35,857 bases of DNA from a virus. Position 1 is the first letter of the stretch. Every line of letters begins with the position of its first letter. Shown here piece by piece: positions 6,699-26,847 of this stretch. Made by a program: the position numbers and the translations under genes. The stretch lies in UHGV virus genome UHGV-0063910; one strand, given 5' to 3'. The notes beneath the pieces are model-generated. The model was not told where the DNA came from, did not search any database, and saw nothing but the letters and a program-made list of their open reading frames with translations.

Positions 6699-7489
6699 TT
6701 ACGCCAGTTGTACAGACACGAACTCATCAGGGTCAGCCAGCAGCATCAGCGGTGCTGACTGAATCATGGTGAACTCACGCGCCGGGTCGCCGGTGGTCAC
6801 CCAGTTTTTCGGGTAACGGGCAGAGGCGTTAATGCCTTCGCGCTGTGCGTCCGCATCCTGAATGCAACCATAGGTGCGCAGACCGCGTGCCTGAGTGTTC
6901 CCCAGCACCATCGTGTTGTCCGGCAGGAAGTTCTTTTTGACGCCGTTTTCCACGTACTGTCCGGAATACACGACGATGGCCACATCGCCATACATTCCCT
7001 TATAAGACACCGCTTTGCCCAGGTCTTTTACCGCTGTCTCCAGCTCGGAATGAGAGCCGCGACGGGTATCCAGCTTCTCCTTGACGGCTTTGAAGGAACG
7101 GAACAGCGCCCAGCCTTTCGGATCAAACACGATGATATTCACCACACCGCTGGCGTTCAGCGCGTAGGCTTCGATATCGTCGGTCGGGTCATACGTGGAC
7201 TTGTCACGCTTGCTCCACTCCGTGCCGCCGGACTGCGTGATGTTATTCGCCTCACTGCGGCCCATATCCACCTCAACCGGATCGAAGGCTTCACCGGTCA
7301 TGGTATATTTGCCCTTAAGCACGGCAGAAACTGCCTGCATCTCTTCGACCTGGGCAATCGCCAGATTTTCATCCAGCATATTCTGCCGAATAATACGGCG
7401 ACGACGGTAAGCCGGGTCAGCCAGGTTCTGCGGATCTTCATCCGGCAGGCGACGCAGGGTCATCTGCGGATTCACCTCATGCTTGGGTT
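6699..7489 (-). pseudogene. E: Major capsid protein E, 3' portion (lambda E codons ~82-341), cut off from its 5' end by the island
   Basis: Translation PKHEVNPQMTLRRLPDEDPQNLADPAYRRRR...DPDEFVSVQLA matches the lambda gpE C-terminal ~260 aa. The reading frame is preceded by a TAA where the island begins. The N-terminal 82 codons are at 18606..18849. Confidence 0.9.
7480..7489. repeat. Left copy of 10-bp direct repeat TGCTTGGGTT flanking the island (putative attL core)
   Basis: Identical 10-mer at 18606..18615. Outer flanks on each side are the two halves of the E reading frame (cctca on the left, tgacata on the right). Confidence 0.8.
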
Positions 7490-7608
7490 ACATGAGTCAA
7501 ATATGAAAGGATGTGAATGATTTTTAGTGATAATATGCTTCAGAATTACTTCCAAAACGAACCGTTGCAATACATCATGCAATACACAGGATATGTAAGG
7601 AGTTATTA

Positions 7609-7794
7609 ATGACTAATTCAGTTGATGTTCAAACCCGTAGAGAAGAATTTGAGCAAGGATATCGAGATGGCTTTCGTTCGGTTCAGGGCAATGTTTTACC
7701 CCCAAAAGCTCCAAGAATTGTACTTGAAACGGGTTCAAAACCTTACGATCAAGGCCATGCTTACGGGGTCAGAGATGCTGGAGGCAAGCGGTAG
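7609..7794 (+). CDS. Small hypothetical protein (61 aa), first gene of the island cargo region
   Basis: ATG at 7609 with AAGGAG 8 nt upstream; AT-rich region; directly upstream of the Abi-like gene. Confidence 0.45.
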   Translation: MTNSVDVQTRREEFEQGYRDGFRSVQGNVLPPKAPRIVLETGSKPYDQGHAYGVRDAGGKR

Positions 7795-7838
7795 CTATCA
7801 CTGGTATAGTCCATAGAAAAAGTGTAAGGGGTCCTAAA

Positions 7839-8600
7839 ATGGATAATTTTCTCAATGAGTTTTCGTCGGATCAGGAACGAGCTAGACATTTAGAGAACTT
7901 ATTAATTAAGGTTGCTCGAGGAGGACCTCGAGATAATAGTGAAAATTATATTTCTCTTAGATCGTACTTTATACAAAACTCTGTATTAAAACTGTTGCTT
8001 CCTGCATTCGTAAGAGAAAACAGAAGCCTAAAAAAATTTTGGGGATTCATACAGCAGAAGTTCCCAACATATAAAGAGCGCGAGTACTTCATCTCAACTG
8101 AATTCACACCGTTATTCGATTATTTCGAAGAGAATCATGCTACGCCTTCGGATGTTCACATAACTGACGGATTAAGAAGCTATGATGAGTGTGGCGTGAA
8201 TGAAGCTTGGGCAAAAGCTCTAGACAGAAGAAACAACGATCCTGAAGGGGCTATTACAGCATCTAGAACATTGCTTGAGACGGTTTGTAAACACATTCTT
8301 GATGATTTAAGTATTACTTATGATAGAAATCTAGACATGAGTGAACTTTATAAACTAACATCCAAAGCACTTAATTTGGCTCCAGATCAGCACGGAGAAC
8401 AGATTTTTAAGCAGATACTTAAAGGTTGCTCATCTGTGGTAAATGGCCTTGGCAATTTACGTAATAAATATGGCGATGCTCATGGCATAGGGAAAAAACC
8501 AATAAAACCTGCTGATCGACATGCTCTTTTAGCTGTTAATCTTGCAGGAAGCATGTCAGTTTTCCTCATTCAAACATGGCAAAACTTGTCAAACAAATAA
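7839..8600 (+). CDS. Abortive-infection-like protein with C-terminal HEPN-type motif (candidate anti-phage cargo)
   Basis: 253-aa ORF with AAGGGG RBS; motif LRNKYGDAHG fits the Rx4-6H HEPN signature. AT-rich composition by eye, at the island edge. Confidence 0.5.
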   Translation: MDNFLNEFSSDQERARHLENLLIKVARGGPRDNSENYISLRSYFIQNSVLKLLLPAFVRENRSLKKFWGFIQQKFPTYKEREYFISTEFTPLFDYFEENHATPSDVHITDGLRSYDECGVNEAWAKALDRRNNDPEGAITASRTLLETVCKHILDDLSITYDRNLDMSELYKLTSKALNLAPDQHGEQIFKQILKGCSSVVNGLGNLRNKYGDAHGIGKKPIKPADRHALLAVNLAGSMSVFLIQTWQNLSNK

Positions 8601-9308
8601 TACCTAATTTTTAACCTCAACTGATTAAATTTCGGTCAAACATCCGTTAGTGAAATACAAGTTGCTATGTAAATACACACCTGCAACTTGTATTACCAAC
8701 CAAGTTTAGCTCCCGATATTACTCATTTCCATTATTTTTCCTTGGCTAGCGCTTCGTCGAACATTTTTACGTGTTATCTTCAAGGTAGATGCTCGCAGAA
8801 ATGATAGTACCACCGATTCGGCGTTGACCATAAGCCAGCAGAACAAGATCCCCTTGGCCGGTTGTATTCGTTACACCACCAAATGCATAGAATGCCTTGT
8901 TATCAGTATCTTGCTTACTCGGCTACCCACAAGATTGTGGGGATAGCATTTGAGCAACGTAGCCTATCGTCACAGAAGCCCCTACTACAAACATCATATT
9001 ACTGGACGCTATACGCGCTCCTGACATTCAGATAGACACAGCAACGCAAATCATTTGCAGCAGACCAGAGCTTTTACTTTCCACAATAACTGGCACAAAT
9101 ACGAATTTCCCGACCCTCAGTAGAGAGCACAAGCGCATCTTTTCCAATATTCTGTTTCCTATGAAAAATACAGAATGTCAGCTCGCGAAATTTACTAGTA
9201 TTCAGATACTTTTCTAATCGAACCTCTCAGTTTAATCGTCATCATTACCTTATAGCTCTGCATTTCGAGTTCCTACAGTAGAGTAAGTGTTCAGTAACCC
9301 AAGTTCAG

Positions 9309-9517
9309 GAGAAAGGAAACGATCATGCCATTTTCAGTCCCAAATAATGCTTTCCATTTCCTTTCTTTTCAGGTGGTGTTTTAAATAAAAACATAAAGTT
9401 ACGGCGAAGAAGAACGGAAACGCCTTAAACCGGAAAATTTCCATAAATAGAGAAAAACTGCGCGCCTTCCGCCCCGTAGTCTGCCGGATTGCCGGAAAGG
9501 ACCCGCCAGCCAGAGCG
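9309..9517. other. Island cos-like site, homologous to the prophage cos
   Basis: About 210 bp alignable with 24828..25037. The ggttacggcgaagaagaacggaaacgccttaaaccggaaaatt block is near-identical. The cosN-like segment (about 9463..9474) differs at several positions and the R1-like hairpin has diverged. Confidence 0.75.
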
Positions 9518-9530
9518 GGCCCTAATTTCA

Positions 9531-9875
9531 TCAACCAATCAACTTATTGCGCCCTTTCAGGGCATTACGCCTGGCGCGTTCAATCTTGAGGCATAACGCC
9601 GCATCAGGTTTTTCCGGTGTGGGTACGAGGCAATAGTTTGATGCTCGCGGGATATTGTTAATCCACTCAACAACCTCGCTTAAATACCAAGCCTTACGCC
9701 CTTCCGTAACCTGCACACGCTCAGGGAACTCTCCACGAGCCTCAAGGTTTAGCAGTGTACGGCGACTCAGGGTTGTAAGTTCCATCACCTGATTCATATC
9801 GACAAGACGCTCGCTTAAGCGCATTTTGTCATCGATATCTAATAGCTCTCGTAGCTGACTATCTCTTTCAATCAT
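9531..9875 (-). CDS. AlpA/MerR-type HTH protein next to the cos-like site (regulator or packaging-specificity factor)
   Basis: 114 aa; segment ELTTLSRRTLLNLEARGEFPERVQV...WYLSEVVEWINN fits the AlpA-family HTH pattern. GAGG RBS; last gene of the E-like/D-like operon. Confidence 0.5.
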   Translation of the reverse strand: MIERDSQLRELLDIDDKMRLSERLVDMNQVMELTTLSRRTLLNLEARGEFPERVQVTEGRKAWYLSEVVEWINNIPRASNYCLVPTPEKPDAALCLKIERARRNALKGRNKLIG

Positions 9876-9884
9876 TCTCGTACC

Positions 9885-10226
9885 TCACACACGTGCCAGC
9901 GGCTGAACAGAAATACCTGAGCCAACAAACGCAGCAACTTTTGCTGATAGTTGTGTTACAGACTCAGGCCAGTTCAGAGCATCAACATTTAAGACGCCGG
10001 TTTTATAAACCTGAGCCTGCGTTTTTGTCGCTGTATCGATTTGTACAGCGGAAACATAAACAGCTTTGCCTGCGCTCGTTCCATCCCATACCACCAGTGC
10101 ACCAGTTGCATCTTCTTGCATCAGTGGCGTAAATGCAGGAATTACCCCTTTATTAGCTGAAAATATCCCCAACGTAGTAACCAGTGCTTCAGTGCCAGCC
10201 ATGAGTTCAGTGTAATGAGTAGCCAT
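9885..10226 (-). CDS. Head decoration protein, lambda gpD-like (island-encoded)
   Basis: 113 aa; aligns with lambda D over TPLM...LVVWDGT..GKAV...YKTG....LNWPE.....AFVGSGIS. AAGGGGGAG RBS; immediately downstream of the E-like gene. Confidence 0.75.
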   Translation of the reverse strand: MATHYTELMAGTEALVTTLGIFSANKGVIPAFTPLMQEDATGALVVWDGTSAGKAVYVSAVQIDTATKTQAQVYKTGVLNVDALNWPESVTQLSAKVAAFVGSGISVQPLARV

Positions 10227-10235
10227 TGCTCCCCC

Positions 10236-11276
10236 TTAACCAATGCGAACGGTAACAAAACGATTGATGCGGGCCGGTATTGGCTGTGGTGCAGAGTGCG
10301 TTTGTACGTACTCAATAGCCGGATCTCCAGGCACAATGTAGTTTTTCGGTGCGAGTTCGGCTTTAGTCAGCCCCATTCGGATTAGCTCCGGATCCTGAAT
10401 GCCACCGTATGCAACGATGCCCTGAAGTGATGTATTGCCAAGAACCATCAAATCAGGATCAAGGAAATATTTTTCTGTTCCGTCCTCGTCGGTATAACGT
10501 CCGCTATACACAACAATAGCCACATCGCCTACGTAACCCTTAAAACTGACGGAATCCCCAAGATTTTTCAGGGCCGTTTCAAGAACGGAATTAGATCCCC
10601 GTCGAGTATCAAGGCAATCTTTTACTGCTTTAAAGGCGCGGTATTTTTTCCATACGTTGCGTCCCATTACGATGATATTTGTAGTCCCTTCGCTGATTTC
10701 TGCGTACTCTTCGATGTCATCATTTGGATCAAATGTTGATAAATCTCTACCGCTCCACTCCGTGCCGCCGGACTGCGTGATAATATTTTGTGGTTTTATA
10801 TTCCAGTCCAGTTCATAACGTTCAATGCCATCGCCCTCAATGATATTTTTCCCCGTTGTGATTGCCTGAACAGCAAGCCATTCAATACGTGCGCGAATGG
10901 CCTGCGCTTGTCTTACCATCGCTCGCTTTATTTTGAAATTGCGTGATGAATATGCATTGAATTGTTCCGGTGATACGCCTGGTTGACGAACGGCTATTTT
11001 ATTTGGGTCTATACTACTTTTTGGCTTCATGTAGCCAGGGCGAATTACTTTTGATTCGTAGCCTTCATCGCGTGATACTTTACTACCAACCATAGGGGAA
11101 CAAAATGCAGCCATCGGGATGTCTGGATCGTCAATAATATCAAGCGCAATATCCCGCGTCTCAAATGTAACGACTCGCTTAAAAAACAGGTTTATAAATA
11201 AAGAGTTAATCTGCCATTGAATATCTTCGGCATTAACAGTCTGTATTAACTCCGCTGGCGAATATAAACCACTCAT
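10236..11276 (-). CDS. Major capsid protein, lambda gpE-like, full length (island-encoded second copy)
   Basis: 346 aa. Conserved blocks ITQSGGTEWS, DTRRGS, GDVAIVVYSG, YG.IQD shared with lambda E and the split prophage E. Divergent from the prophage copy (roughly half of positions differ by eye). Confidence 0.85.
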   Translation of the reverse strand: MSGLYSPAELIQTVNAEDIQWQINSLFINLFFKRVVTFETRDIALDIIDDPDIPMAAFCSPMVGSKVSRDEGYESKVIRPGYMKPKSSIDPNKIAVRQPGVSPEQFNAYSSRNFKIKRAMVRQAQAIRARIEWLAVQAITTGKNIIEGDGIERYELDWNIKPQNIITQSGGTEWSGRDLSTFDPNDDIEEYAEISEGTTNIIVMGRNVWKKYRAFKAVKDCLDTRRGSNSVLETALKNLGDSVSFKGYVGDVAIVVYSGRYTDEDGTEKYFLDPDLMVLGNTSLQGIVAYGGIQDPELIRMGLTKAELAPKNYIVPGDPAIEYVQTHSAPQPIPARINRFVTVRIG

Positions 11277-11461
11277 ATAACCTCTTAATACTTAGTAAAA
11301 GTGTCGTATTAATTTTATCATCTGCCTTGATCGGCATCTTTATGCATTGCTATGCAATATTGTGCAAAGTTTCAATCTTCGTTTATTTATCCGGCGTTAC
11401 GTGTCATTCTGTACAGCGTTACAAGTTCAAAGACATAAATTATTCTCTTTGGTGATGAAAG

Positions 11462-11487
11462 GGTCGGAATATTCCGGCCTTTTTTTT
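11462..11487 (+). terminator. Intrinsic terminator on the plus strand (hairpin + T8)
   Basis: ggtcggaatattccggcc palindrome followed by tttttttt. No plus-strand ORF upstream, so it may end an unannotated small or antisense RNA. Confidence 0.5.
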
Positions 11488-11510
11488 GCGTGGTGTGACG
11501 GACTCAACTG

Positions 11511-11532
11511 ATAAAAGCCGGATTTCTCCGGC
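11511..11532 (-). terminator. Intrinsic terminator for the island replication operon (minus strand)
   Basis: On the minus strand gccggagaaatccggc followed by ttttat, immediately after the ssb-like stop. Confidence 0.5.
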
Positions 11533-11540
11533 CTGTGCGT

Positions 11541-11947
11541 TCAGAATGGAATATTGTCACCGTAGAGATCATCCCCTCCCGCTGGTGGTGTGTTGCCCTG
11601 TGTGCCTGTGGTTTTACGTCTGTTCCCGCCAGGTCGCACCGTTCGCGCACTGATTACGCTGTCTGCGATAACCTGCCAGCGCTGCCGCGTTTCACCGTTC
11701 TGTCCAGTCCACTGGCTCACCTGCATGTTACCCGCCACGCTCAGGAGTTCGCCTTTGTGATGCTTTGCCAGCGTGTCGGCTTGTCTGCCAAACGCCAGGA
11801 CAGATAACCACATCGTCGCCTGACCGTCATCCGACTGCAGGGCAGTGATACCGCCATACGCGCCAGCGTCATGGGGATGCCCTTGCTGGTCTGTTTTGTC
11901 TGCGGGTCGTCCACCAACCTCCCGTAAACTGATATTTGCGCCGTCAT
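11541..11947 (-). pseudogene. ssb: ssb-like gene split over two reading frames (frameshift near 11838..11850)
   Basis: The 11947 frame gives an SSB-like N-terminus (ISVYGRLVDDPQTKQ...). A different frame gives the OB-fold C-half (WLSVLAFG...KGELLSV...WTGQNGETR) and an acidic tail ending DNIPF. Confidence 0.55.
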
Positions 11948-12201
11948 GCTGCCTGCTCTCCGGACTTAATATTGATGGTTGTCACTTCCTCCGCTTCAGC
12001 AATCTCCCGTTCGGTCAGAGTGGCAAAGTTTGCAGCCGCCGTTGTCATGAATGCGCTAATCAGTTCGGGATGTGCTTTCGCGTATCCTTCACCGGCGTTG
12101 CGATCTATTGCCTTAATCGCCACCCTTAGCCAGTGTTCAGCCATATCAAGGGCGCGGTAATGTGGCTTTATATGTTTGTTCAGTTTTCCTGATGTGTGCA
12201 T
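11944..12201 (-). CDS. Hypothetical protein (85 aa), between the ori and the ssb-like gene
   Basis: ORF whose stop overlaps the ssb-like start; weak RBS. Confidence 0.4.
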   Translation of the reverse strand: MHTSGKLNKHIKPHYRALDMAEHWLRVAIKAIDRNAGEGYAKAHPELISAFMTTAAANFATLTEREIAEAEEVTTINIKSGEQAA

Positions 12202-12246
12202 TTTTATTTTTACCCCCTCGTTTAAAAAGTTTTGAAATGTGGTGCA

Positions 12247-12475
12247 CCTCCTCTACCTCTCTACCTAATCATCTTTCAGGTCAGTAATGGCGCGGCTTTC
12301 AGATGGGTAGAGGGCTTTCGGGGCCCTCTACCCATCCTCTACCCGCCCCTCACAAATGACCTTAATCATGGTGGAGGAGGTAGAGGGCTTTTATTTGCCT
12401 TCTACCTGACCCTCTACCTGCTTATCATATTGAATAATATATATTTATTTTCTTTAGGTAGAGGAGGTAGAGGGC
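12247..12475. repeat. Iteron array (about 9 copies of GGTAGAGG/CCTCTACC, both orientations) flanking an AT-rich stretch: putative island origin of replication
   Basis: Iterons at about 12251-12265, 12306-12313, 12325-12344, 12379-12386, 12399-12420, 12457-12473; AT-rich core 12421-12456; immediately 3' of the primase-helicase gene. Confidence 0.75.
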
Positions 12476-12487
12476 TTTTGTCTAAAA

Positions 12488-14239
12488 TTATAAAAACGCG
12501 TCGCAATCCTCTGTTGTTGTCACATTGGTTTGCGTAAGTCCTTTAACCCTGCGCGTTATATATTCACATCCGTAAACTTTCGCCGCTGGCTTCATGGCCT
12601 TGCTGAAATCAGCCACGTTTAGCGGCTTGCTTCTGCCTGCGTATGCCATAAACGCCAGATAGACGCGGTAAAGGCTGTTTCTGGTCGTGTACTTCACGGA
12701 ATCGCCACCGCCACCCATCATCAGGCCGCGCGCTTCCTCCAGAAAATTCAGAAACTGGCAAAACTCAATAACCGGATCCGTCTGTTGCTTTATCGCCAGT
12801 GCTTCTTCACCGTCGCGCTGTTCAATCAACAAATGTCGCGCCTTTTCTGGATCAGCAAAGTTTGCCAGCAATCTGCGGATAATCACGGGGATTTCAGCCG
12901 CGACCTTCTCCGGTAAATCCTTGTCCTTTTCTGCCTCGCTAACGATATTGTCGAAGCGGAAAATTACGCGACGACGTGACACACCTCCGGCCCGTTCGGT
13001 GAATATCATCGGGTTATTGTTGGTAGCCAGCACCACCGCCCTGATTACCTCCGTAAAACGCTTTTCATATTTCGGGTTTATTTCCACGGGGTCGCCGCCC
13101 GTGATTTTCTTGATGCCCGTGCCTTCGCCTGTATATTTCGGCTGGTCAGCCAGGACGATAAGACGTCTCCCGACAACCTGAGCACGCCCACCAGCATCAT
13201 CAAGCGAAGTCATTTCAGCGCTTACCGTGTTCTGTTTCCCTGCCAGAAGGCTGGCTATGTGCGTGAATGTACTCTTTCCGCTCCCGCCGTCTCCGGTGGC
13301 CTCAATAAACATCTGCCAGTCGTACCGGTTCGCCATAATCATGTACAGCGCGGCACATATACGCATCATCTTGCGCGGGTCTTTTCCGGCTGCGTGATCA
13401 AGCCATTTATGAAAGTTTGGCGCGTTGTCGCGGATGTTCTCCCCTGGTGCTGGTGGCGTGTACTCAATGCCGTTGTGCGTGGTGATCCAGTTCTCCGGCG
13501 AGTGCGGGGAAAATTCCCCCGTTTTCAGGTCAAGCACACCATTGGCGAACGGTAGCAAATCACCGGACGGCTCCCCCATGGGGTCGGCAATAACTTTTAA
13601 CGCCTCCACGGCGTTATTAATTGCACGCTTGCTGAATGTGGCCCTGTGCTCTGAATAGATCGCCACCATTTCGCGGCTCAGCTCCATTGTGCTGACCGGA
13701 CACCATACCCCGCCGCGCCATACGTGGACGATTTCACTTTCTGCATGAACACACACACCATCAAAGCGATCGGCAAGTAGTTGTGCACGTTCACTGTCTG
13801 CCATCTGTGAAAGTTGCGCCTTTTGCTTCGTCGGAAGATTAAGCACCAGACTTTCCCCACGCTCGCATTCCTCTTTGAGTCGCGGCAACTGGTCGGATAA
13901 ATCCACGGGGCTGGTGTCAGTAATCCCCGCGTATTCGTGTACGGTCTTCACTCCAGCCACAGCCAATAACGTAACAATCTGCGTCATGCTGTGCTCTGTG
14001 ATATGTCCTGCGCGGTAAACACGCACACACTGACGATCTTCATCAATGATCCGGTAATCGGTGATATTTTTCAGTTGCTCATCAGCCAGCACGACAGGCG
14101 GCACATCGTCGGCGGCAATATGTTTACCCGCCCATTCCTGCCACTCTTTCGCATGGCTCCACGCATCACTACCTGCAAAGATGATTACCTCTGTCAGTCT
14201 GTCGCGTGGCTGTTTTTTTAAGTTCGGTGCCAGTTTCAT
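12488..14239 (-). CDS. Primase-helicase (D5/P4-alpha-like, SF3 helicase with Walker A)
   Basis: 583 aa; Walker A motif GDGGSGKST in the C-terminal half; location between regulatory genes and ori typical of satellite replication modules. Confidence 0.8.
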   Translation of the reverse strand: MKLAPNLKKQPRDRLTEVIIFAGSDAWSHAKEWQEWAGKHIAADDVPPVVLADEQLKNITDYRIIDEDRQCVRVYRAGHITEHSMTQIVTLLAVAGVKTVHEYAGITDTSPVDLSDQLPRLKEECERGESLVLNLPTKQKAQLSQMADSERAQLLADRFDGVCVHAESEIVHVWRGGVWCPVSTMELSREMVAIYSEHRATFSKRAINNAVEALKVIADPMGEPSGDLLPFANGVLDLKTGEFSPHSPENWITTHNGIEYTPPAPGENIRDNAPNFHKWLDHAAGKDPRKMMRICAALYMIMANRYDWQMFIEATGDGGSGKSTFTHIASLLAGKQNTVSAEMTSLDDAGGRAQVVGRRLIVLADQPKYTGEGTGIKKITGGDPVEINPKYEKRFTEVIRAVVLATNNNPMIFTERAGGVSRRRVIFRFDNIVSEAEKDKDLPEKVAAEIPVIIRRLLANFADPEKARHLLIEQRDGEEALAIKQQTDPVIEFCQFLNFLEEARGLMMGGGGDSVKYTTRNSLYRVYLAFMAYAGRSKPLNVADFSKAMKPAAKVYGCEYITRRVKGLTQTNVTTTEDCDAFL

Positions 14240-14535
14240 TTTTTGCCCCTGAATGCGTTAATCATGCTTTTCATTTTCTGGATGTTTCCCCGCGCTTTTT
14301 CCCTGCTGATGGGGTTACTGCGGGGTGCGGCATATACCAGGGAAAAATCACGCCGGAACTGATAAACAGGCATCACGCAGTCATAGCTATACCCCTCACG
14401 GCGGTAAGTGATGCGCCGTTCTGCCACGCCTTTAATCGTTACCGTGCCGCCGTATTTATCGCGGTAAATATCGCCGTTCATAAATTCAGGCCGAGCGGGG
14501 CCGCTGGCAATAAAGCCAGAATTTTTCATTTCCAT
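14236..14535 (-). CDS. Hypothetical protein (99 aa), translationally coupled to primase
   Basis: Stop overlaps the primase ATG (ATGA). Confidence 0.5.
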   Translation of the reverse strand: MEMKNSGFIASGPARPEFMNGDIYRDKYGGTVTIKGVAERRITYRREGYSYDCVMPVYQFRRDFSLVYAAPRSNPISREKARGNIQKMKSMINAFRGKK

Positions 14536-14552
14536 ATTATTTATTCCTCGAC

Positions 14553-14774
14553 TTAACTCGACTTATTTGATAGCAGGGCACTATTTATTGCGTCATTGAG
14601 TTTTTCTGCTGCTTCATCAATAAGTGACAACAGGCCATAAGCAATATTTGCATCTTCATTGTCATTTATGCAATCAAGCCACATATTTAATATTGCTTTT
14701 GCTGAATTATTTAAAGTTAATGAACTTTCTGCACATGCTAACAATTTAAAAAAGACTTCCCGTTCTGTATTCAT
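14553..14774 (-). CDS. Hypothetical small protein (73 aa)
   Basis: ORF in the tightly packed minus-strand operon; AT-rich codons. Confidence 0.4.
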   Translation of the reverse strand: MNTEREVFFKLLACAESSLTLNNSAKAILNMWLDCINDNEDANIAYGLLSLIDEAAEKLNDAINSALLSNKSS

Positions 14775-14966
14775 TTAATCCCCCACCAGCTTACTTTCTT
14801 CCTCAATCAAAAAACTAGCGACACTTCCCGAAAGACGCGCCAGTAGGCTCGCCAGTGCGGATATATCAGCATCTGTAATTTTGTTCGGGTATACCTCAAG
14901 AAGGCGGCAAATAATTTCTGTCTGGTGCGCACGTTCAGCGGCTTCGTGTAATGTAATTTCCTGCAT
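14775..14966 (-). CDS. Hypothetical small protein (63 aa)
   Basis: Abuts neighbouring ORFs in the same operon. Confidence 0.4.
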   Translation of the reverse strand: MQEITLHEAAERAHQTEIICRLLEVYPNKITDADISALASLLARLSGSVASFLIEEESKLVGD

Positions 14967-15151
14967 TAATGCACCTCTTTTAATTCATACACTGCTGAAA
15001 TAATGACTTGTGATAAGCCATATTCTGATGATTCGCTTCTCACCGCAGCAATAGCCGTCTGAACATTAACAGCCTTCACGTTCTGAGCGATACCAATTGT
15101 GTGGCCTAGTGGGTTAACCGCACGAGCAAATACACGGAAGGTTTTAAGCAC
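14966..15151 (-). CDS. Hypothetical small protein (61 aa)
   Basis: Abuts neighbouring ORFs in the same operon. Confidence 0.4.
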   Translation of the reverse strand: MLKTFRVFARAVNPLGHTIGIAQNVKAVNVQTAIAAVRSESSEYGLSQVIISAVYELKEVH

Positions 15152-15508
15152 GGCATACCTCCTGACGAATACGGGCGGCGAATATCATCACGCAGCCAGT
15201 TGGGGATTGTTGGCGGGCTTCCTGTTCGCTGGTGGCCTCGATGTGTATTACGCGTGGTTGTGCGGTGCTCAGGGCGATAAAACGCCAGATGAAATTGTTT
15301 TCGCATTTCTGAATAAACAGCGTGTTTTCTTCACGCCCTTTCCAGAAAGCCGCAGTATAGCCCATCTCCTTAACCATCTTGCGGGCATCAACCAGCGTGT
15401 CAGCGGCAACATGTACCGTAGTTGCTCCATCTGCCATGCGGTCGTGGTGTAGTGCCAGAAAGGTGTATATAAATTTAGGGTGAGTTTGGGTATGCTGTGT
15501 TCCAGCCA
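15144..15508 (-). CDS. Hypothetical protein (121 aa), first gene of the island early operon
   Basis: ATG at 15506-15508 with GAGG RBS. The track ORF upstream of this ATG (to 16058) is antisense to the regulator gene and Ser/Arg-rich, so treated as spurious. Confidence 0.5.
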
Positions 15509-15595
15509 TAATCGTTACCTCGTTTAACGGTTTGGTTAGAAGCCCGGTTAGTGTTCGCGCACTGCCGGGTTTCGTCGTTTTTATGAATCGATCAT

Positions 15596-15699
15596 TGTGA
15601 GATACATAGCGACCATAATGTGAGATATACATTATATTGTGGTGATATACATTGCAAGTGTTTTTATATCTCACTTTTGTGTATAGTGATATACACATA
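15596..15699. promoter_or_regulatory. Divergent control region with 5 copies of a GTGA(G/T)ATA(T)ACA(T) operator-like repeat
   Basis: Copies at about 15596-15608, 15619-15632, 15640-15651, 15665-15674 (inverted), 15687-15699, between the minus-strand operon start and the plus-strand regulator. Confidence 0.55.
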
Positions 15700-15717
15700 A
15701 CAAATTGGTGATTAACT

Positions 15718-16020
15718 ATGTCTGTATACAAAAATGCAAAATCGCAAATGACAACGATCAGGGTTCCCCACGATGTTATGGAGGGCATGGAATCCGTAAA
15801 ACTGGACGGCGAAAGCAACGCCGGATTCATAGTAACCGCCATGCGCGGTGAGATCGCCCGCCGCCAGGCAGAAGGAAGCGGAGAAAATCCCCTCGTGTCT
15901 TCACTGGATGCCTTAGCTAAGGTCGAACAAATCGGCATCAAGGCAGCGGAGGAAATCGGGCAACTCGTAGCCGTCGCTCGTGAAGAACTCCAGCGGCGTA
16001 AAGCCAAAGAATCTGAATAA
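15718..16020 (+). CDS. Putative ribbon-helix-helix-like DNA-binding regulator (candidate island repressor)
   Basis: 100 aa; N-terminus QMTTIRVPHDVMEGMESVKLDGESNAGFIVTAMRGEIARRQ fits a strand-helix-helix layout; immediately downstream of the operator repeats. Confidence 0.4.
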   Translation: MSVYKNAKSQMTTIRVPHDVMEGMESVKLDGESNAGFIVTAMRGEIARRQAEGSGENPLVSSLDALAKVEQIGIKAAEEIGQLVAVAREELQRRKAKESE

Positions 16021-16370
16021 TTAGTATCAGCGCCGTGATGTGAGTAACTACGGCGCATTGCTATGTAAATACTGGCAATAAACAGAAAAGGTAGTTCTAC
16101 TCCGAATAATTTTATCTGACACTACTCCTGAACTAACATGCGCTTATCTTACAGGATATAAATATAAATCCATAAAATCACGATTAAATAAAGTCGCTCC
16201 AAACATAAACCACACCCAACGCTTAACAAGATAGCAACAAACAGGTAAATAACTTGCAGAAATATTTATCGCAAGGATTATCATTATTAATGACAAATCA
16301 CTTTACCAAGTCATTCCCCTCTCTTATCATAAAGAGAAAGTAATAAATAAGTTAAGGGAGTTAGAATGCT

Positions 16371-16907
16371 ATGAATCTAAAAAAAATAGCCACAAACACA
16401 AAAAACAAGATAACAGAAACATTTAATAAACTTATATTGGAGGCATCTAAAACCCCCACGCAAGATGAAATTAAAATACTTGAGAGAAGGAGTAAGAAGT
16501 TTAATTACTCCTTTTTCTCATACGCAGTCACAGGAGCTATAATAGTTTTTTGCTCTCAACCATTAATTAAATACGCAAACCCAATACTTATTTTATTGAG
16601 TGGTCTGTTACTGTCTATCATCATTATCATTCTCAGAATGATTTATATTTCACAAGCGAATGCATCATGGACAACCAAAAAACGCTCACATGTACTAGTT
16701 CATTTTCTTTCTGCATGTTTCATAGCATCAACATTGACGTTGCTATATCAGGCTTACGATAATAACATCACACACAAATTGTACTGTAAAAATATACAAC
16801 AACTTATTGAAAAAAGGATAGAAATAGAAAAAAACATCAGCATATTCAGTGGGATGCAATGCACCCCGGTATATGATTACTCTTTATTTGGATTTAATCT
16901 CTTATAA
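16371..16907 (+). CDS. Small membrane protein (about 3 TM helices), AT-rich cargo
   Basis: 178 aa; hydrophobic stretches FFSYAVTGAIIVFCSQPLI, ILILLSGLLLSIIIIILRMIYI, VLVHFLSACFIASTLTLLY; Lys/Asn/Ile-rich; preceded by GGGAG. Confidence 0.5.
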   Translation: MNLKKIATNTKNKITETFNKLILEASKTPTQDEIKILERRSKKFNYSFFSYAVTGAIIVFCSQPLIKYANPILILLSGLLLSIIIIILRMIYISQANASWTTKKRSHVLVHFLSACFIASTLTLLYQAYDNNITHKLYCKNIQQLIEKRIEIEKNISIFSGMQCTPVYDYSLFGFNLL

Positions 16908-16927
16908 AGAATGTTATTACTGATTTG

Positions 16928-16961
16928 AGTACAAATTCTCAAATCAGTAATTCATAATATT
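16928..16961. terminator. Bidirectional terminator hairpin (13-bp stem) between the membrane-protein gene and alpA
   Basis: ttactgatttgag ... ctcaaatcagtaa inverted repeat with an 8-nt loop and T-rich flanks on both sides. Confidence 0.55.
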
Positions 16962-16976
16962 TTATTCTGAGATAAT

Positions 16977-17213
16977 TTAAACTACCCACTCACCTCGAAT
17001 CCATGCCTGCACTTCTGAAAGACGATATGCAACAGCAGTGGAACCAATCTTGATCCGCTTAGGAAATTTTCCTTCCTTCTCCAGCTTCCAGCGTGTGCTG
17101 TTCGCAAGAGTGGTTAGCTCCCGACATTCTTTCTCACGGATCATTCGGTCAATGTTAGGAATGTACTCCAGACCCTTTTTATCAACAATTGCCATTTTTT
17201 TCATGTTAACCAA
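16977..17213 (-). CDS. alpA: AlpA-family HTH regulator / excisionase-like protein
   Basis: 78 aa; ELTTLANSTRWKLEKEGKFPKRIKIGSTAVAYRLSEVQAWI matches the AlpA pattern; directly downstream of int, overlapping it by 8 nt. Confidence 0.7.
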   Translation of the reverse strand: MVNMKKMAIVDKKGLEYIPNIDRMIREKECRELTTLANSTRWKLEKEGKFPKRIKIGSTAVAYRLSEVQAWIRGEWVV

Positions 17214-18441
17214 CCTTTTGTTTGAGGATTGTCACTTTTGAATCAGCACCTGCGATGCTATTGAGATATGTAGTCCAGAGTTCCAGAGCATCCAGTTTTT
17301 TAGCCATAAACTTACTCCGGTTGTAAACACCTGCCACGCCAGGTAGCGCATGGCCTAACAGTTGTTCTACTACATAAAATTCAACACCGAGATCACTTAG
17401 ATGAGTAGATAGCGTTCTTCTAAGGTCGTGTAGTGACCATTGTTTTTCATGGCCCAAACGTTTACCGATTTTCCCCCCAATCTTGCTTACGCTTTCTCTA
17501 ATTCGCAGACTTCCCAGCACATAACCAGTATGTTTTGTCTCTTCGTGAACATCCGTTACCCACTGTCGTAGAATTTCAGGTACTGGTCTGACGATTTCAA
17601 CACCAGTTTTTGAGTGATCTTTTGGTACAGTCCAAACCCAACTTTCGAGATCCCATTCGCTCCATTCTGATAATCGGGCTTCACTCATTCGACATCCAAA
17701 TACTGTACAAAGCACAAACATTTTTCGCGTGTATTCAGACATTAGTTTTAAATCAGGCTCGACAAAAATTGCCTTCCAGAGCTGGCCGAGTTCGGCTTCA
17801 TCCAGAACCCGATCCCGCTTACCTGCAATCTGCCCCACATCACTCATGCGCAAATCCTTTAAAGCATCACACGTCGCGTACTGGCGTACCCGACAAAAAC
17901 GAAGAGCTAATTTAGTGTCAGAAAAAACATACGCCGCCATAACTGGTGCATTACGTTTAATTCGGTCAAAACAGTCCAGCCATTCATATAGGTGAGTGTC
18001 ATTTACGGGCAAATGACCGATATAGGGAAAGATATGCTTTCGAAATCTGCCAAGCGTTACAGCATGAGTTTTACGACGCACCTTACAGTAATTTTCATAC
18101 CAGTAATTTAGTGCATCCTCCACTGTGACCGGCTTTAAGCGTTCTTCAGCCTGAATCTTAATCTGGATACGCGGATCACGTTTGTCAGCCAACCAACCAC
18201 GGCACTCGTCGCGCTTTTCCCTTGCCTGTTTGAGTGACATATCAGGATATTTACCCAACGTTAGCCAGACCGGAGCAGCCCGGCCACCTGCTAACCTGTA
18301 GAAGAAAACAAAGCTTACAGCCCCTTTAGTACTCACACGAATAGAAAGCCCCTTTCCATCAGCAATGGTGATCTGCTTTTCTCTGGGTTTCCCCAGATAT
18401 CCTTTAAGCGCTTTGTCGCTCAGTTTGTTCTCGCCAGCCAT
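17206..18441 (-). CDS. int: Tyrosine integrase (P4-type)
   Basis: C-terminal catalytic region with HDLRRT...LGH...Y residues; sits next to the right repeat. Start placed at ATG 18439-18441 (MAGENKLSDK...); the track ORF extends to 18492. Confidence 0.85.
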   Translation of the reverse strand: MAGENKLSDKALKGYLGKPREKQITIADGKGLSIRVSTKGAVSFVFFYRLAGGRAAPVWLTLGKYPDMSLKQAREKRDECRGWLADKRDPRIQIKIQAEERLKPVTVEDALNYWYENYCKVRRKTHAVTLGRFRKHIFPYIGHLPVNDTHLYEWLDCFDRIKRNAPVMAAYVFSDTKLALRFCRVRQYATCDALKDLRMSDVGQIAGKRDRVLDEAELGQLWKAIFVEPDLKLMSEYTRKMFVLCTVFGCRMSEARLSEWSEWDLESWVWTVPKDHSKTGVEIVRPVPEILRQWVTDVHEETKHTGYVLGSLRIRESVSKIGGKIGKRLGHEKQWSLHDLRRTLSTHLSDLGVEFYVVEQLLGHALPGVAGVYNRSKFMAKKLDALELWTTYLNSIAGADSKVTILKQKVG

Positions 18442-18605
18442 TTTTAGCCCCAAAAAGCAATACAAGCTGCAATACAGAGATGATTGCAACACACAGATAA
18501 CGAGGAAAATTCAGTGAAAGCACCAGATAAACTTATTCTTTATTATCAAAAGATTAAGTGTAAAAACCAGCAACTACACGAAAGCCTCAGAAAGCCATGC
18601 TAAGT

Positions 18606-18615
18606 GCTTGGGTTT
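18606..18615. repeat. Right copy of 10-bp direct repeat TGCTTGGGTT (putative attR core)
   Basis: Identical to 7480..7489; lies inside the codons KPKH of the E 5' fragment. Confidence 0.8.
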
Positions 18616-18849
18616 GACATAACCCGGCGTAAATTCAGAGGTGGAGCCGCCACGGGATCGGATAACCTCACCGGAAACAATCGGCGAAACGTACAGCGCC
18701 ATGTTTACCAGTCCCGGAATTTGTGAGAGATAGACTTTTTCCGTGGTGAAAGGATAGGTTTCACGGAAAAACAGGCGCAGAAACAGCGGATCGAACTTAA
18801 AGTGATGCTGGGTCGATGCCAGTAATTCTGCAGTTGTATATACAGACAT
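18606..18849 (-). pseudogene. E: Major capsid protein E, 5' portion (codons 1-~82), reads into island DNA
   Basis: MSVYTTAELLASTQHHFKFDPLFLRLFFRETYPFTTEKVYLSQIPGLVNMALYVSPIVSGEVIRSRGGSTSEFTPGYVKPKH matches the lambda gpE N-terminus, then continues as LAWLSEAFV-stop in island sequence (track ORF ends at 18574). Confidence 0.9.
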
Positions 18850-25217: not shown

Positions 25218-26285
25218 ATGAGTCAACATCAATATTATCCACAGCTGAAATGGAAGCCTGCTGAATATGAATCTCTGATGCTTTTAGATCAAACTACGCT
25301 CTCTGGTTTTACTCCGATCATTACCATTCCAGACATAGACTGGGATTATGAAAACGAATGCTACAAGAAGAGTTTGAGTTCTTACTTATCTGACTTCGGT
25401 ATTAACCTTGCGGCATCCTGGAAAGCCAATCGTCCTGTTTTGCTGGATGTTAAATATTTAGATAAACATGGTTCGAGCCGCCATCATCCTCTAGATATGT
25501 GTATCCAAGATGCTAGAGTAAATGGTAAGGAAATTATCCCTGTTGTTTCTCCCGCATATTCAACAAACTATATACATGCTGTTCAACGCAACTTAATCAA
25601 TGGGCTCGCTATATCTATCACCCCCCAGACATGGCACCAATTCACAAGTCTGGTTAACCACTTAAATATTCATCCTAGTTTAATTGATGTAATCATTGAT
25701 TTTGGAGATATTCAAAACGCAACTGATAGTTTAAAACAACAAGCATTAAGCATGGTCAACACATTATCAGGCCAAGCTCCGTGGAGAAACTTGATTTTAT
25801 CTTCAACCGCATACCCGGCATCACAGGCAGGGATACCGCAACATCAAGTTCATCATATTCCGCGCCATGAATACGATCTTTGGATGTACGTAGTACAGAA
25901 TTTTAGCAATGGAAGAACGCCAAGTTTTAGTGATTATCCCACCGCTAGCTCTACCATTACGAGCGTAGACCCACGCTTCATGTCTCAGTATGTCTCAGTG
26001 AGATATTCGAACGATACCTCATGGATCTTTGTAAAAGGTACCGCAGTTAAAGGAAATGGATGGGGCCAAACTAAAAACTTATGTACTACCCTTGTTAGTT
26101 CGCCAGAGTATCAAGTCTTTGGCTCCAAATTTAGTTGGGGGGATGATTACATTTACCAAAGATCATTAGGCGCTAACAAATCTGGCGGCTCTAAAGAATG
26201 GCGTAAAGTTGCACATACGCACCATATTACGTTAGTCGTGAGACAGCTTTATTGGTTGGCGCAGACTCAGCCTGCCAAGCCTTAA
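25218..26285 (+). CDS. Hypothetical protein (355 aa), AT-rich cargo gene next to cos
   Basis: ATG with TAAGGAG RBS. Opposite strand to the phage late genes, in the position lambda uses for bor-type accessory genes. No family recognised with confidence. Confidence 0.6.
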   Translation: MSQHQYYPQLKWKPAEYESLMLLDQTTLSGFTPIITIPDIDWDYENECYKKSLSSYLSDFGINLAASWKANRPVLLDVKYLDKHGSSRHHPLDMCIQDARVNGKEIIPVVSPAYSTNYIHAVQRNLINGLAISITPQTWHQFTSLVNHLNIHPSLIDVIIDFGDIQNATDSLKQQALSMVNTLSGQAPWRNLILSSTAYPASQAGIPQHQVHHIPRHEYDLWMYVVQNFSNGRTPSFSDYPTASSTITSVDPRFMSQYVSVRYSNDTSWIFVKGTAVKGNGWGQTKNLCTTLVSSPEYQVFGSKFSWGDDYIYQRSLGANKSGGSKEWRKVAHTHHITLVVRQLYWLAQTQPAKP

Positions 26286-26847
26286 CTTTCCAGCCTACGC
26301 GTTTCTTTAAGGCTGTTCTGACTTCAAGCCTGAGATTCGCTATTGGAATATTTTCCGCAATAATATTCCATAACTCAAATCGGGGCTTGCTTTTTATTCC
26401 TTTGGAATAGCCCCATCGTTCAAGTACGTCGATACATTCATCTTTCCAAAGCAATTGAGCGAGCATCAATGTGTCATGGTTTCGATTAAGCTTTTCTCCA
26501 CGCATGTGCTTTATAAGAATGGCGCCTTTTGGCCCAACAGAAACCGTTTTAACGCCCCACCAACCTGGGATTAACTTTAATGCTCCCTCAAGGTGTTTCT
26601 CAGCTACGACAAGAGTAACCTTGTCCATTACAGAAGAATAATGCTTGATTTGAAGAGGCAAACGCTCCAAAGAGTCATATTCACTTTTGAGCTCGTACCC
26701 GTGTATAACACCATTTATTACAGCAATGTCTGCTCTACTGGCGCCAAGGGATATGGAAAATTCATCGACCACAAGGCAGTCTGGATCTAAATGCGATTCT
26801 TTCAAAAGCTTATGATGCACCGCGAACCTAACATCTTGATCTTTCAT
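26227..26847 (-). CDS. Hypothetical protein (206 aa) with possible PD-(D/E)xK nuclease-like motif, AT-rich cargo gene
   Basis: ATG with AAGGAG RBS; segment VVDEFSISLGASRADIAVINGVIHGYELK has the D...(E)xK spacing of restriction-endonuclease-like folds. Its 3' end overlaps the 355-aa gene convergently by 59 bp. Confidence 0.55.
   Translation of the reverse strand: MKDQDVRFAVHHKLLKESHLDPDCLVVDEFSISLGASRADIAVINGVIHGYELKSEYDSLERLPLQIKHYSSVMDKVTLVVAEKHLEGALKLIPGWWGVKTVSVGPKGAILIKHMRGEKLNRNHDTLMLAQLLWKDECIDVLERWGYSKGIKSKPRFELWNIIAENIPIANLRLEVRTALKKRVGWKVKAWQAESAPTNKAVSRLT

Follow-up and report, generated by a model that had tools for sequence, protein, structure and literature searches.

A candidate autoregulated ribbon-helix-helix repressor, its putative operator array and a candidate cis-antisense RNA at the replication operon of a satellite embedded in a lambdoid Escherichia coli prophage

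The ribbon-helix-helix (RHH) partition proteins omega (of pSM19035) and ParG bind arrays of short repeats in mixed orientation, and they do so cooperatively. In Gram-negative PICIs, helper-dependent expression of AlpA is the sole experimentally established trigger, related islands are induced by the overexpression of AlpA alone, and the origins of PICIs were mapped downstream of pri (PMC6092414). As reported by Tommasini, Mageeney and Williams in 2023 (PMC10111431), PICIs may adopt a helper-embedded configuration, which includes "11capE" in the capsid gene E. For such an embedded element, read-in by late transcription of the prophage was proposed to be possible as well (PMC10111431). In P4, as far as the work of Forti et al. 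(1999) is relayed in PMC10111431, the 65-aa kil is nested in eta, which starts upstream of the internal PLE, and the translation of eta from upstream transcripts prevents termination. The YlcI/YnfO family, to which the protein described below belongs, appears in island tables merely as a prophage-associated protein (PMC13612085). Our literature search returned no description of the repressor proposed here, of its operators or of its antisense RNA.

The window, i.e. the whole stretch of 35,857 nucleotides that we analyzed, is a lambdoid E. coli prophage with tail, head and terminase genes all on the minus strand. A satellite island of ~11 kb sits inside the major capsid gene of the prophage, which is interrupted so that its N-terminal part lies at 18574-18849 and its C-terminal part at 6699-7475. 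The 10-bp att core identity block TGCTTGGGTT was present at both island junctions, at 7480-7489 and 18605-18614. With its split capsid gene, att cores, Int, AlpA and primase, the window island is a helper-embedded PICI, and a near-identical RefSeq locus carries the same gene annotation. The island context is already known; the new finding is one of the few plus-strand features of the island. The genes needed below are as follows.

17206-18492, minus strand: int, island gene
16977-17213, minus strand: alpA, island gene
15718-16020, plus strand: regulator gene (100 aa, YlcI/YnfO family), the proposed repressor
15144-15509, minus strand: Icd-like gene (121 aa), first in the leftward operon, with its start at 15509
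between the Icd-like gene and the primase, minus strand: three small ORFs and a DUF4222 gene
12488-14239, minus strand: D5_N/DUF5906 primase, island gene
past the primase in the island, minus strand: SSB fragment, second major capsid gene and head-decoration gene

The regulator gene has a GGTGA ribosome site 6 nt 5′ of its start. Its product matched the NCBIfam model NF041551 (YlcI/YnfO, a 42-position N-terminal model) with residues 8-49 over the full model, at 70.5 bits against a cut-off of 30, and the RefSeq entry for the identical protein bears the same YlcI/YnfO name. The best Pfam match, PSK_trans_fac, an RHH antitoxin family, was below threshold (16.3 bits, cut-off 28.3). RHH antitoxins were the closest structural matches, and some homologues are labelled "Arc-like DNA binding domain" in UniRef. 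Foldseek with the monomer model against the PDB gave no useful match, and the profile searches of PDB sequences gave no RHH protein. In the AlphaFold monomer (22 homologues, mean pLDDT 77), residues 1-17 were unstructured and were followed by helices at residues 18-27 and 34-53 and by a long helix at residues 58-99; the N-terminal strand was absent. As predicted, the model resembles an RHH monomer whose strand is without its partner, with an extra C-terminal helix. A weak helix-hairpin-helix-like match to Hef among the PDB profile results (E = 0.011) found no support in the model, where there is a single continuous helix.

The N-terminal alignments in hhalign gave P = 0.001 against Arc and P = 0.005 against Mnt and placed Arg15, Val16 and Pro17 of the regulator on Arg13, Trp14 and Pro15 of Arc. 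The base-contacting residues of Arc are Gln9, Asn11 and Arg13, which in this register correspond to regulator residues 11, 13 and 15. Several modest signals from sequence and model thus agree that the regulator is likely an RHH protein. The sequence-only reading of the window had noted an RHH-like N-terminus. An Arc/Mnt-like head at approximately residues 8-53 is plausible, and the predicted order of two helices and then a long one agrees with it; the strand took no form in the monomer, and neither Pfam at its threshold nor the PDB supplied an RHH relative.

The regulator gene was present in 656 of 5426 complete E. coli genomes (~12%), and the module was found in Nissle 1917 and in an O157:H7 capsid-forming island with cf-PICI gene content. 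The latter may correspond to the prototype EcCIEDL933. The 100-aa form had no match among 50,697 phage records. In a related prophage, the region upstream of ynfO contained no phased repeats. An interaction between a prophage ynfO copy near cos and the island was also considered and dropped; other cargo occupies that place in the window prophage.

The sequence-only reading had placed five motif copies between the 100-aa plus-strand gene and the divergent minus-strand operon running from the Icd-like gene to the primase. Both the copies and the layout were confirmed, with all five copies found at 15597-15696. The picture needs one correction, in that a single copy is inverted and the lengths differ by a 2-nt TA indel. 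The consensus of the array is GTGA(G/T)ATA(TA)CA(T/C), and the sites, with P_L and P_R denoting the predicted leftward and regulator promoters listed further below, are:

15597-15607, plus strand: S1, GTGAGATACAT, within the leftward leader at ~+15 to +25 of the transcript and at -121 from the regulator ATG
15620-15632, plus strand: S2, GTGAGATATACAT, overlapping the edge of the P_L -10 and the predicted start
15642-15652, plus strand: S3, GTGATATACAT, in the P_L spacer and abutting the P_L -35
15664-15674, minus strand: S4, TTATATCTCAC (plus-strand letters), the inverted copy, in the P_R spacer region
15686-15696, plus strand: S5, GTGATATACAC, overlapping the end of the P_R -10 and the predicted start of the regulator transcript

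S1 was the least conserved of the five, and its position is as in related loci. The start-to-start spacing from S1 to S5 was 23, 22, 22 and 22 bp, i.e. two helical turns. Allowing at most one mismatch, GTGAKATAYAC had 8 matches in the 35.9-kb window against 1.28 expected, a count reached by none of 100 shuffles, and 5 of the 8 fell within the 100-bp array. The best 8-mer count in the 130-bp AT-rich region was weakly significant, as 48 of 1000 local shuffles also reached 5. Such a simple k-mer count is merely marginal against local shuffles because the array region is AT-rich. As it is unconvincing alone, we applied a statistic for phased chains, and a run of five sites at intervals of 20-24 bp turned up in 1 of 1000 local dinucleotide shuffles. 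Directly past the regulator stop codon lies a hairpin without a U-run:

16031-16057: hairpin GCGCCGT...ACGGCGC, its loop containing the weak motif-like GTGAGTAAC

A distal operator downstream of the regulator was considered and dropped, as none was conserved in other loci.

A stock promoter scanner detected no promoter in the intergenic region. The promoters were deduced from conservation in an alignment of 19 representative intergenic regions and from a simple weight matrix. In these 19 loci, the invariant columns of the alignment were three promoter elements, and the variable columns were the repeat sites. A conserved block, GTCAA/TTGCAA, corresponds to TTGAC(A/G/C) on the minus strand, and a conserved T-A-n-n-n-T hexamer lies 17 nt further along that strand. 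The P_L -35 and the T-A...T columns of its -10 were invariant or nearly so. The weight matrix put its top minus-strand sigma-70-like site at one common position in all 19 loci. On the plus strand, TATAnT was conserved across loci at -36 to -31 from the regulator ATG. The resulting predictions in the window are:

15629-15657, minus strand: predicted P_L, the leftward sigma-70 promoter of the Icd-like-to-primase operon, from conservation and weight matrix
15652-15657, minus strand: predicted P_L -35, TTGCAA
15629-15634, minus strand: predicted P_L -10, TAATGT, with a 17-nt spacer
15631-15636, minus strand: alternative P_L -10, TATAAT, with a 15-nt spacer
15682-15687, plus strand: predicted P_R -10 of the regulator gene, TATAGT, the conserved TATAnT

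The start of P_L is predicted near 15622. For P_R, the -35 is weak and T-rich, and no good -35 was found. S3 occupies the P_L spacer and S2 its start, while S4 lies in the P_R spacer and S5 over its start. The sites lie across the conserved promoter of the leftward operon as well as that of the regulator gene itself. The regulator is therefore most likely a repressor that acts on the replication operon and on its own gene, as suggested by the positions of the sites.

The sign of the regulation would be different if the regulator bound the array as an activator or as a bidirectional switch, for instance turning on the leftward operon after induction. Some RHH proteins both activate and repress, and P_R, being devoid of a -35, could need help. 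Nevertheless, we regard such activation as quite improbable, given that the sites fall inside both promoter spacers and on both transcription starts, which are typical occlusion positions. Moreover, P_L is near consensus and should therefore need no activator.

The proposed autorepressor and its sites were compared across 32 related loci from 12 genera, comprising 11 loci from a scan of one genome per species, 15 E. coli loci chosen across the identity range, and six loci fetched later as a test. The genera were Escherichia, Yersinia, Enterobacter, Xenorhabdus, Photorhabdus, Serratia, Erwinia, Edwardsiella, Cronobacter, Klebsiella and Phytobacter, together with a contig labelled Martelella. 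In all 32 loci, the regulator gene was divergent from a short Icd-like gene heading the replication operon, and 4 or 5 sites were located at about -121, -98, -76, -53 and -31 from the regulator ATG. The idea of a regulatory array would have suffered had the repeats not been conserved in related islands; the layout was conserved throughout the 32 loci, and the site sequence was class-specific. We distinguished at least nine classes of site sequence, which correspond one-to-one with regulator residues 11-14 in the N-terminal strand. They are listed with the residues first, then the motif and the sources.

MTT(I/V): GTGAGATAC; the window, Yersinia, Enterobacter
L(T/F)TV: GTGTGTTTCA; E. coli, Xenorhabdus, Photorhabdus, Serratia
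S(L/V)TA: GTGTAAGAC; E. coli, Enterobacter, Edwardsiella
QLNA: TGGTATTCAC; E. coli
QINA: TGGGATTCA; Phytobacter
QISI: TGTGATTCA; E. coli, Cronobacter
MKNI: GGTGTATA or GCACACC; E. coli
(L/V/I)KN(I/V): GTGTGTATTT; Erwinia, Serratia, the contig labelled Martelella
ALAA: GTGTAAAC; Klebsiella

The same operator class recurs in different genera. That the strand residues follow the operator class is an indirect sign in favor of an RHH dimer, which would place its two-stranded sheet in the major groove of the sites. Among the six loci fetched later, the five with a known strand type carried the expected motif class, and the sixth (Klebsiella, ALAA) formed a new one. Two near-isogenic loci (L022 and L023) have identical AlpA (WP_000072422) and Icd-like (WP_000929266) proteins and differ in both the motif and the regulator head. 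The left-flank types are shuffled with respect to the operator classes, one Icd-like/leader type occurring with five classes and another with six. Operator similarity correlated with regulator residues 1-35 at r = 0.67, and the neighboring segments gave 0.25-0.45, among them the left flank with 0.29, the N-terminus of the Icd-like protein with 0.37 and the C-terminus of the regulator with 0.25. The regulator's C-terminal half is nearly invariant across classes. Within 1.5 kb on either side, the class motif was confined to the array in most loci, with a few scattered one-mismatch matches outside it in two of the classes (C and D). It counts against our reading that the heads of the window type and of the L type are set apart chiefly by residue 11 and the N-terminal arm, although their motifs are quite different.

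The regulator head is the only class-specific coding sequence nearby, which makes it the candidate reader of the class-specific repeats. The operators and the 5′ third of the regulator gene lie between two conserved segments, so that cassette exchange is possible and linkage contributes to the association. Across the 32 loci, the comparison of sequences supports the conclusion that the repeats behave as cognate operators of the regulator. A different reader of the repeats, such as AlpA, an integrase of the arm-type kind, a host factor or an iteron- or centromere-binding system, with the regulator unrelated to them, appears very improbable. Phased repeat arrays are indeed also found at origins and partition sites. 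However, the motif class tracked neither the AlpA, the Icd-like protein, the integrase nor the replicase type, no partition ATPase is present, PICI origins lie downstream of pri (PMC6092414), and outside the array the class motif was either absent or reduced to the scattered matches mentioned above.

Beside the array and over the start of the Icd-like gene, the plus strand encodes a candidate RNA:

15504-15582, plus strand: candidate cis-antisense RNA of ~78 nt, two hairpins and then a U-rich tail, UUUCGUCGUUUUU
15491-15496, plus strand: candidate -10 of the antisense RNA, TATGCT

The RNA is complementary to the Shine-Dalgarno sequence and the start codon of the Icd-like gene, with the anti-SD CCUC in the first loop. 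At gathering thresholds, no Rfam family matched in the window. At a relaxed threshold, SymR (RF01809) matched 15504-15576 on the plus strand with 35.3 bits and E = 2.7e-5 in a 281-nt search; the gathering score is 61, so the RNA falls outside the SymR family by the Rfam criterion, yet as predicted from its sequence it is SymR-like in build and placement. The z-score of folding was -5.55 on the plus strand vs -1.68 on the minus strand. Among 23 distinct sequences, the two hairpins were paired in 96.9% of cells, compared to 37-48% with partners slid, and eight pairs had compensatory changes. The hairpins contain many G-U pairs, which would not form on the opposite strand. A TAnnnT box was located 7-8 nt 5′ of the RNA in all types. 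A covariance model placed the RNA on the plus strand in all 32 loci, scored the six held-out loci at 63-87 bits, and found second copies in three loci. An RNA of the P4 C4/CI type was considered and dropped, as there was no C4 or isrK match at gathering thresholds in the window or at E ≤ 10 in 15100-16400.

The Icd-like protein matched NCBIfam NF033153 with 77.6 bits. The window protein is made of two tandem units of a domain whose length is 65-68 aa in most related islands, and its PHROG matches fell in two stretches. A homology to P4 Kil was not borne out, as in a tblastn search of the phage collection the Icd-like protein matched a single satellite-like record and not P4. The gene is contained in a much longer frame:

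15144-16058, minus strand: long ORF of 304 aa, with its ATG at 16058 and the frame open from 16121, containing the Icd-like gene

This frame crosses the leader, the operator array and then the whole regulator gene in antisense. It was open in 23 of the 32 loci, for 600-1600 nt, and in some loci it reached the alpA stop codon or came within a few tens of nt of it. The other two minus-strand frames had 2-10 stops within the 215-nt intergenic part alone. The antisense RNA and the long minus-strand ORF lie within the same 600 bp, and both had been missed by the sequence-only reading.

The long frame raises the question of which strand is expressed. If the 100-aa plus-strand ORF were unexpressed, the role of the true gene would fall to the long minus-strand ORF, whose coding or leader sequence would include the repeats. 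The openness of the minus frame through the region in 23 of the 32 loci speaks for this, as do the Icd-like pseudogene fragments that NCBI annotates on the minus strand. On the other hand, the plus frame gives a match to a curated family with further members in prophages that have no such overlap, and a purine-rich ribosome site precedes the regulator ATG in every locus. Substitutions were more conservative in the plus frame, with 0.311 amino-acid changes per nucleotide change vs 0.384 in the minus frame. The upstream peptides of the minus frame are nonsense-like and radically different between loci. Second positions of the plus frame were the least variable; codon-position counts fail to separate the overlapping frames because their third positions coincide. 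We therefore judge an unexpressed plus-strand ORF to be very improbable. We read the minus frame as one in which selection probably acts on the openness of the frame and not on the sequence of a protein.

With an expressed regulator, the properties of the first operon gene and of the RNA permit one further explanation, namely that the module is mainly an addiction or toxin-control cassette, serving maintenance or abortive infection and not induction. A toxic Icd-like cell-division inhibitor would then be held by an antitoxin-like RHH autorepressor and by an RNA resembling a type I antitoxin. The Icd-like nature of the first gene, the resemblance of the antisense RNA to the type I antitoxin SymR in sequence and layout, the RHH antitoxins as the closest structural matches, and the movement of the cassette between islands with differing replicases and integrases all fit such a role. 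Against it, the regulator lacks a co-transcribed toxin gene, and its downstream genes vary or are absent among the loci, unlike in a type II toxin-antitoxin system. The promoter covered by the sites also serves the replication operon in its full length, as far as the primase, and the toxicity of the Icd-like protein is assumed from its family name. We consider a mainly addictive function unlikely.

We favor instead, as the rather probable reading, an immunity-type lock by which a Gram-negative phage satellite would keep its replication operon shut. It would be composed of a repressor and an antisense RNA and bypassed from upstream. At rest, dimers of the regulator would bind the five sites, with P_L off and P_R throttled. 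As the sites are two helical turns apart, all of them would be on one face of the DNA. The long conserved C-terminal helix probably ties the dimers together, which would make the binding cooperative. The regulator would in this manner shut off the leftward operon (Icd-like gene, small ORFs, DUF4222 gene and primase) and limit its own synthesis. As a second lock, the 78-nt antisense RNA, presumably constitutive, would pair with the ribosome site and the start codon of the probably toxic Icd-like gene. Transcripts that escape repression would be blocked at the Icd-like start, and, by analogy with P4, polarity may extend the block to the downstream replication genes. Upon induction, transcription from upstream would cross the regulator gene in antisense and run through the operators into the operon, bypassing both locks. 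Such transcription might be activated by AlpA, or it might be late transcription of the prophage reading through int and alpA.

We must also note that AlpA overexpression alone induces related islands (PMC6092414), which means that the lock would be insufficient to block induction and may be peripheral. The sequence-only reading had proposed a master switch that holds the island silent until a helper signal arrives. Its core, a regulator with operators, is supported by the covariation in 32 loci and by the sites over both promoters; a switch awaiting the helper is unproven, and the published induction is through AlpA. More tentatively, we put forward a broader proposal that we ourselves hold to be doubtful. 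The cassette might be the missing global repressor of Gram-negative PICIs, a swappable immunity module in which an RHH head and its operator of five sites would co-evolve into at least nine groups of specificity, with a cis-antisense RNA as reinforcement. It would be placed in antisense within an eta-like ORF, and translation of that ORF from transcripts driven by AlpA or by the helper would override both locks. The invariant C-terminal helix could then be a handle for oligomerization or for a helper-encoded anti-repressor.

The module provides a concrete and directly testable repressor candidate, and YlcI/YnfO, an uncharacterized family, gains a proposed function from the sequence comparison. 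The natural pairs of heads and operators could help in dissecting the specificity of RHH proteins or in building orthogonal repressors. With a repressor gene plus operators inside a frame that is kept open on the opposite strand, the region would also be an unusually dense case of regulatory coding.

In comparison with known systems, the regulator resembles Arc and Mnt of phage P22 in the xRxPx(D/E)V strand-turn-helix signature, in the alignment register and in its small size. It is also like Mnt, which has a C-terminal coiled-coil tetramerization domain, in having a C-terminal helix after the DNA-binding head. Both here and in P22, operators lie across promoters and autoregulation is to be expected. 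The similarity in sequence is marginal (P ~1e-3 in hhalign), with no RHH Pfam model reaching its cut-off. For Arc and Mnt, the operator is a single 21-bp site occupied by a tetramer, whereas here five sites at 22-bp intervals cover two divergent promoters. With omega and ParG, the array shares several short asymmetric repeats, direct and inverted, upstream of promoters. The heptads of omega are contiguous, however, whereas the sites here are 22 bp apart and belong to no partition system. As in Gram-positive PICIs, where Stl/Rpr is the repressor (PMC6092414), the regulator gene points away from the satellite's replication operon. Stl differs in being a helix-turn-helix protein that is transcribed with int and relieved by a helper protein (PMC6092414); here int and alpA are on the strand opposite to the regulator, and the fold class is another.

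In terms of RNA, SymR of the E. coli SymR/SymE pair is also a cis-antisense RNA of ~77 nt with two hairpins over the ribosome site and start codon of its target, and the sequence of the second loop is similar. The target here is an Icd-like gene heading an operon and not symE, and the score was 35.3 bits vs 61. The arrangement likewise recalls P4 immunity, as far as it is described in PMC10111431. A short, probably toxic first gene is nested in a long ORF that begins upstream of an internal promoter, beside an alpA homologue, an RNA blocks, or here would block, that first gene, and a bypass by upstream transcription would apply. In contrast to P4 as portrayed in that source, the RNA here is cis-antisense and not processed from the sense strand, and no C4, CI or isrK match was found here; PLE, according to the same source, is without a protein repressor or operator array. 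An RHH repressor with an array of repeat operators is a well-known kind of system. What is new, as judged from the sequences compared, is that Gram-negative satellites carry it as a swappable specificity cassette, that it is paired with a candidate cis-antisense RNA, and that it is nested in antisense in an eta-like frame.

The prophage major capsid gene was interrupted by an island of ~11 kb (window 7480-18614), an arrangement that matches the already published helper-embedded PICI (PMC10111431). The interrupted gene and the island's ends, together with some of the features carried inside, were placed in the window as follows.

6699-7475 and 18574-18849: fragments of the major capsid gene
7480-7489 and 18605-18614: att core TGCTTGGGTT
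7839-8600, plus strand: accessory gene with an Abi_C (abortive infection) domain, at the far end of the island
9531-9875, minus strand: second AlpA-family gene (114 aa), downstream of the island capsid and decoration genes
16302-16330: promoter-like site near the gene of the 178-aa protein
16371-16907, plus strand: predicted membrane protein of 178 aa, between the regulator gene and alpA

The predicted 178-aa membrane protein gave no family match, and in other islands the slot between the regulator gene and alpA was either empty or occupied by small ORFs or by genes of the Bro-N or AntA kind. The far-end position looks like a defence-gene hotspot, since the near-identical island of NZ_CP067307 has a gene with a TIR domain where the window has the Abi_C gene. 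The SSB-like ORF (11541-11813, minus strand) encodes 90 aa, and its profile match was confined to the second half of SSB; it may be truncated, because the protein in related islands is ~140-150 aa long. Outside the island, a further gene pair adjoins the prophage terminase genes.

25218-26847: Beta_protein (PF14350) gene, overlapped by a convergent gene of 206 aa

The 206-aa gene had no family match, and in a related prophage the corresponding position is occupied by ynfO instead. The two are possibly a cargo or defence pair.

Parts of the regulatory module recurred in extra or shortened form among the 32 related loci. Some islands have a second antisense-RNA element between the regulator gene and alpA, which suggests duplicated or remnant leader modules; three such copies are given here in each locus's own coordinates.

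L019, 3148-3240: second antisense-RNA element
L026, 3037-3127: second antisense-RNA element
L032, 2326-2418: second antisense-RNA element

In a Xenorhabdus vietnamensis contig (L008), a single 11.5-kb stretch contains the full regulator twice and the antisense-RNA element three times, a sign of islands that lie in tandem or are nested. The regulator of L026, an E. coli island, has only 59 aa (2452-2631) and no C-terminal helix, yet it still accompanies an operator array of three sites of the matching class. This naturally short version is about as large as the prophage YlcI/YnfO.

The Icd-like protein of the window (15144-15509, minus strand) has 121 aa, and the domain in most related islands has 65-68 aa. 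Two separate stretches of the longer protein were matched by PHROG models, and the domain appears to be duplicated in tandem in it (FIYTFLAL... and FIWRFIAL...). The frame of its gene runs without stops across the operator array and the entire regulator gene, antisense to the latter (15144-16121, minus strand). It is likewise open in 23 of the 32 related loci, in some of which it reaches, or almost reaches, the alpA stop codon. This openness looks like the product of selection, and in that respect the Icd-like frame resembles P4 eta/kil, where an open frame also appears to be selected for.
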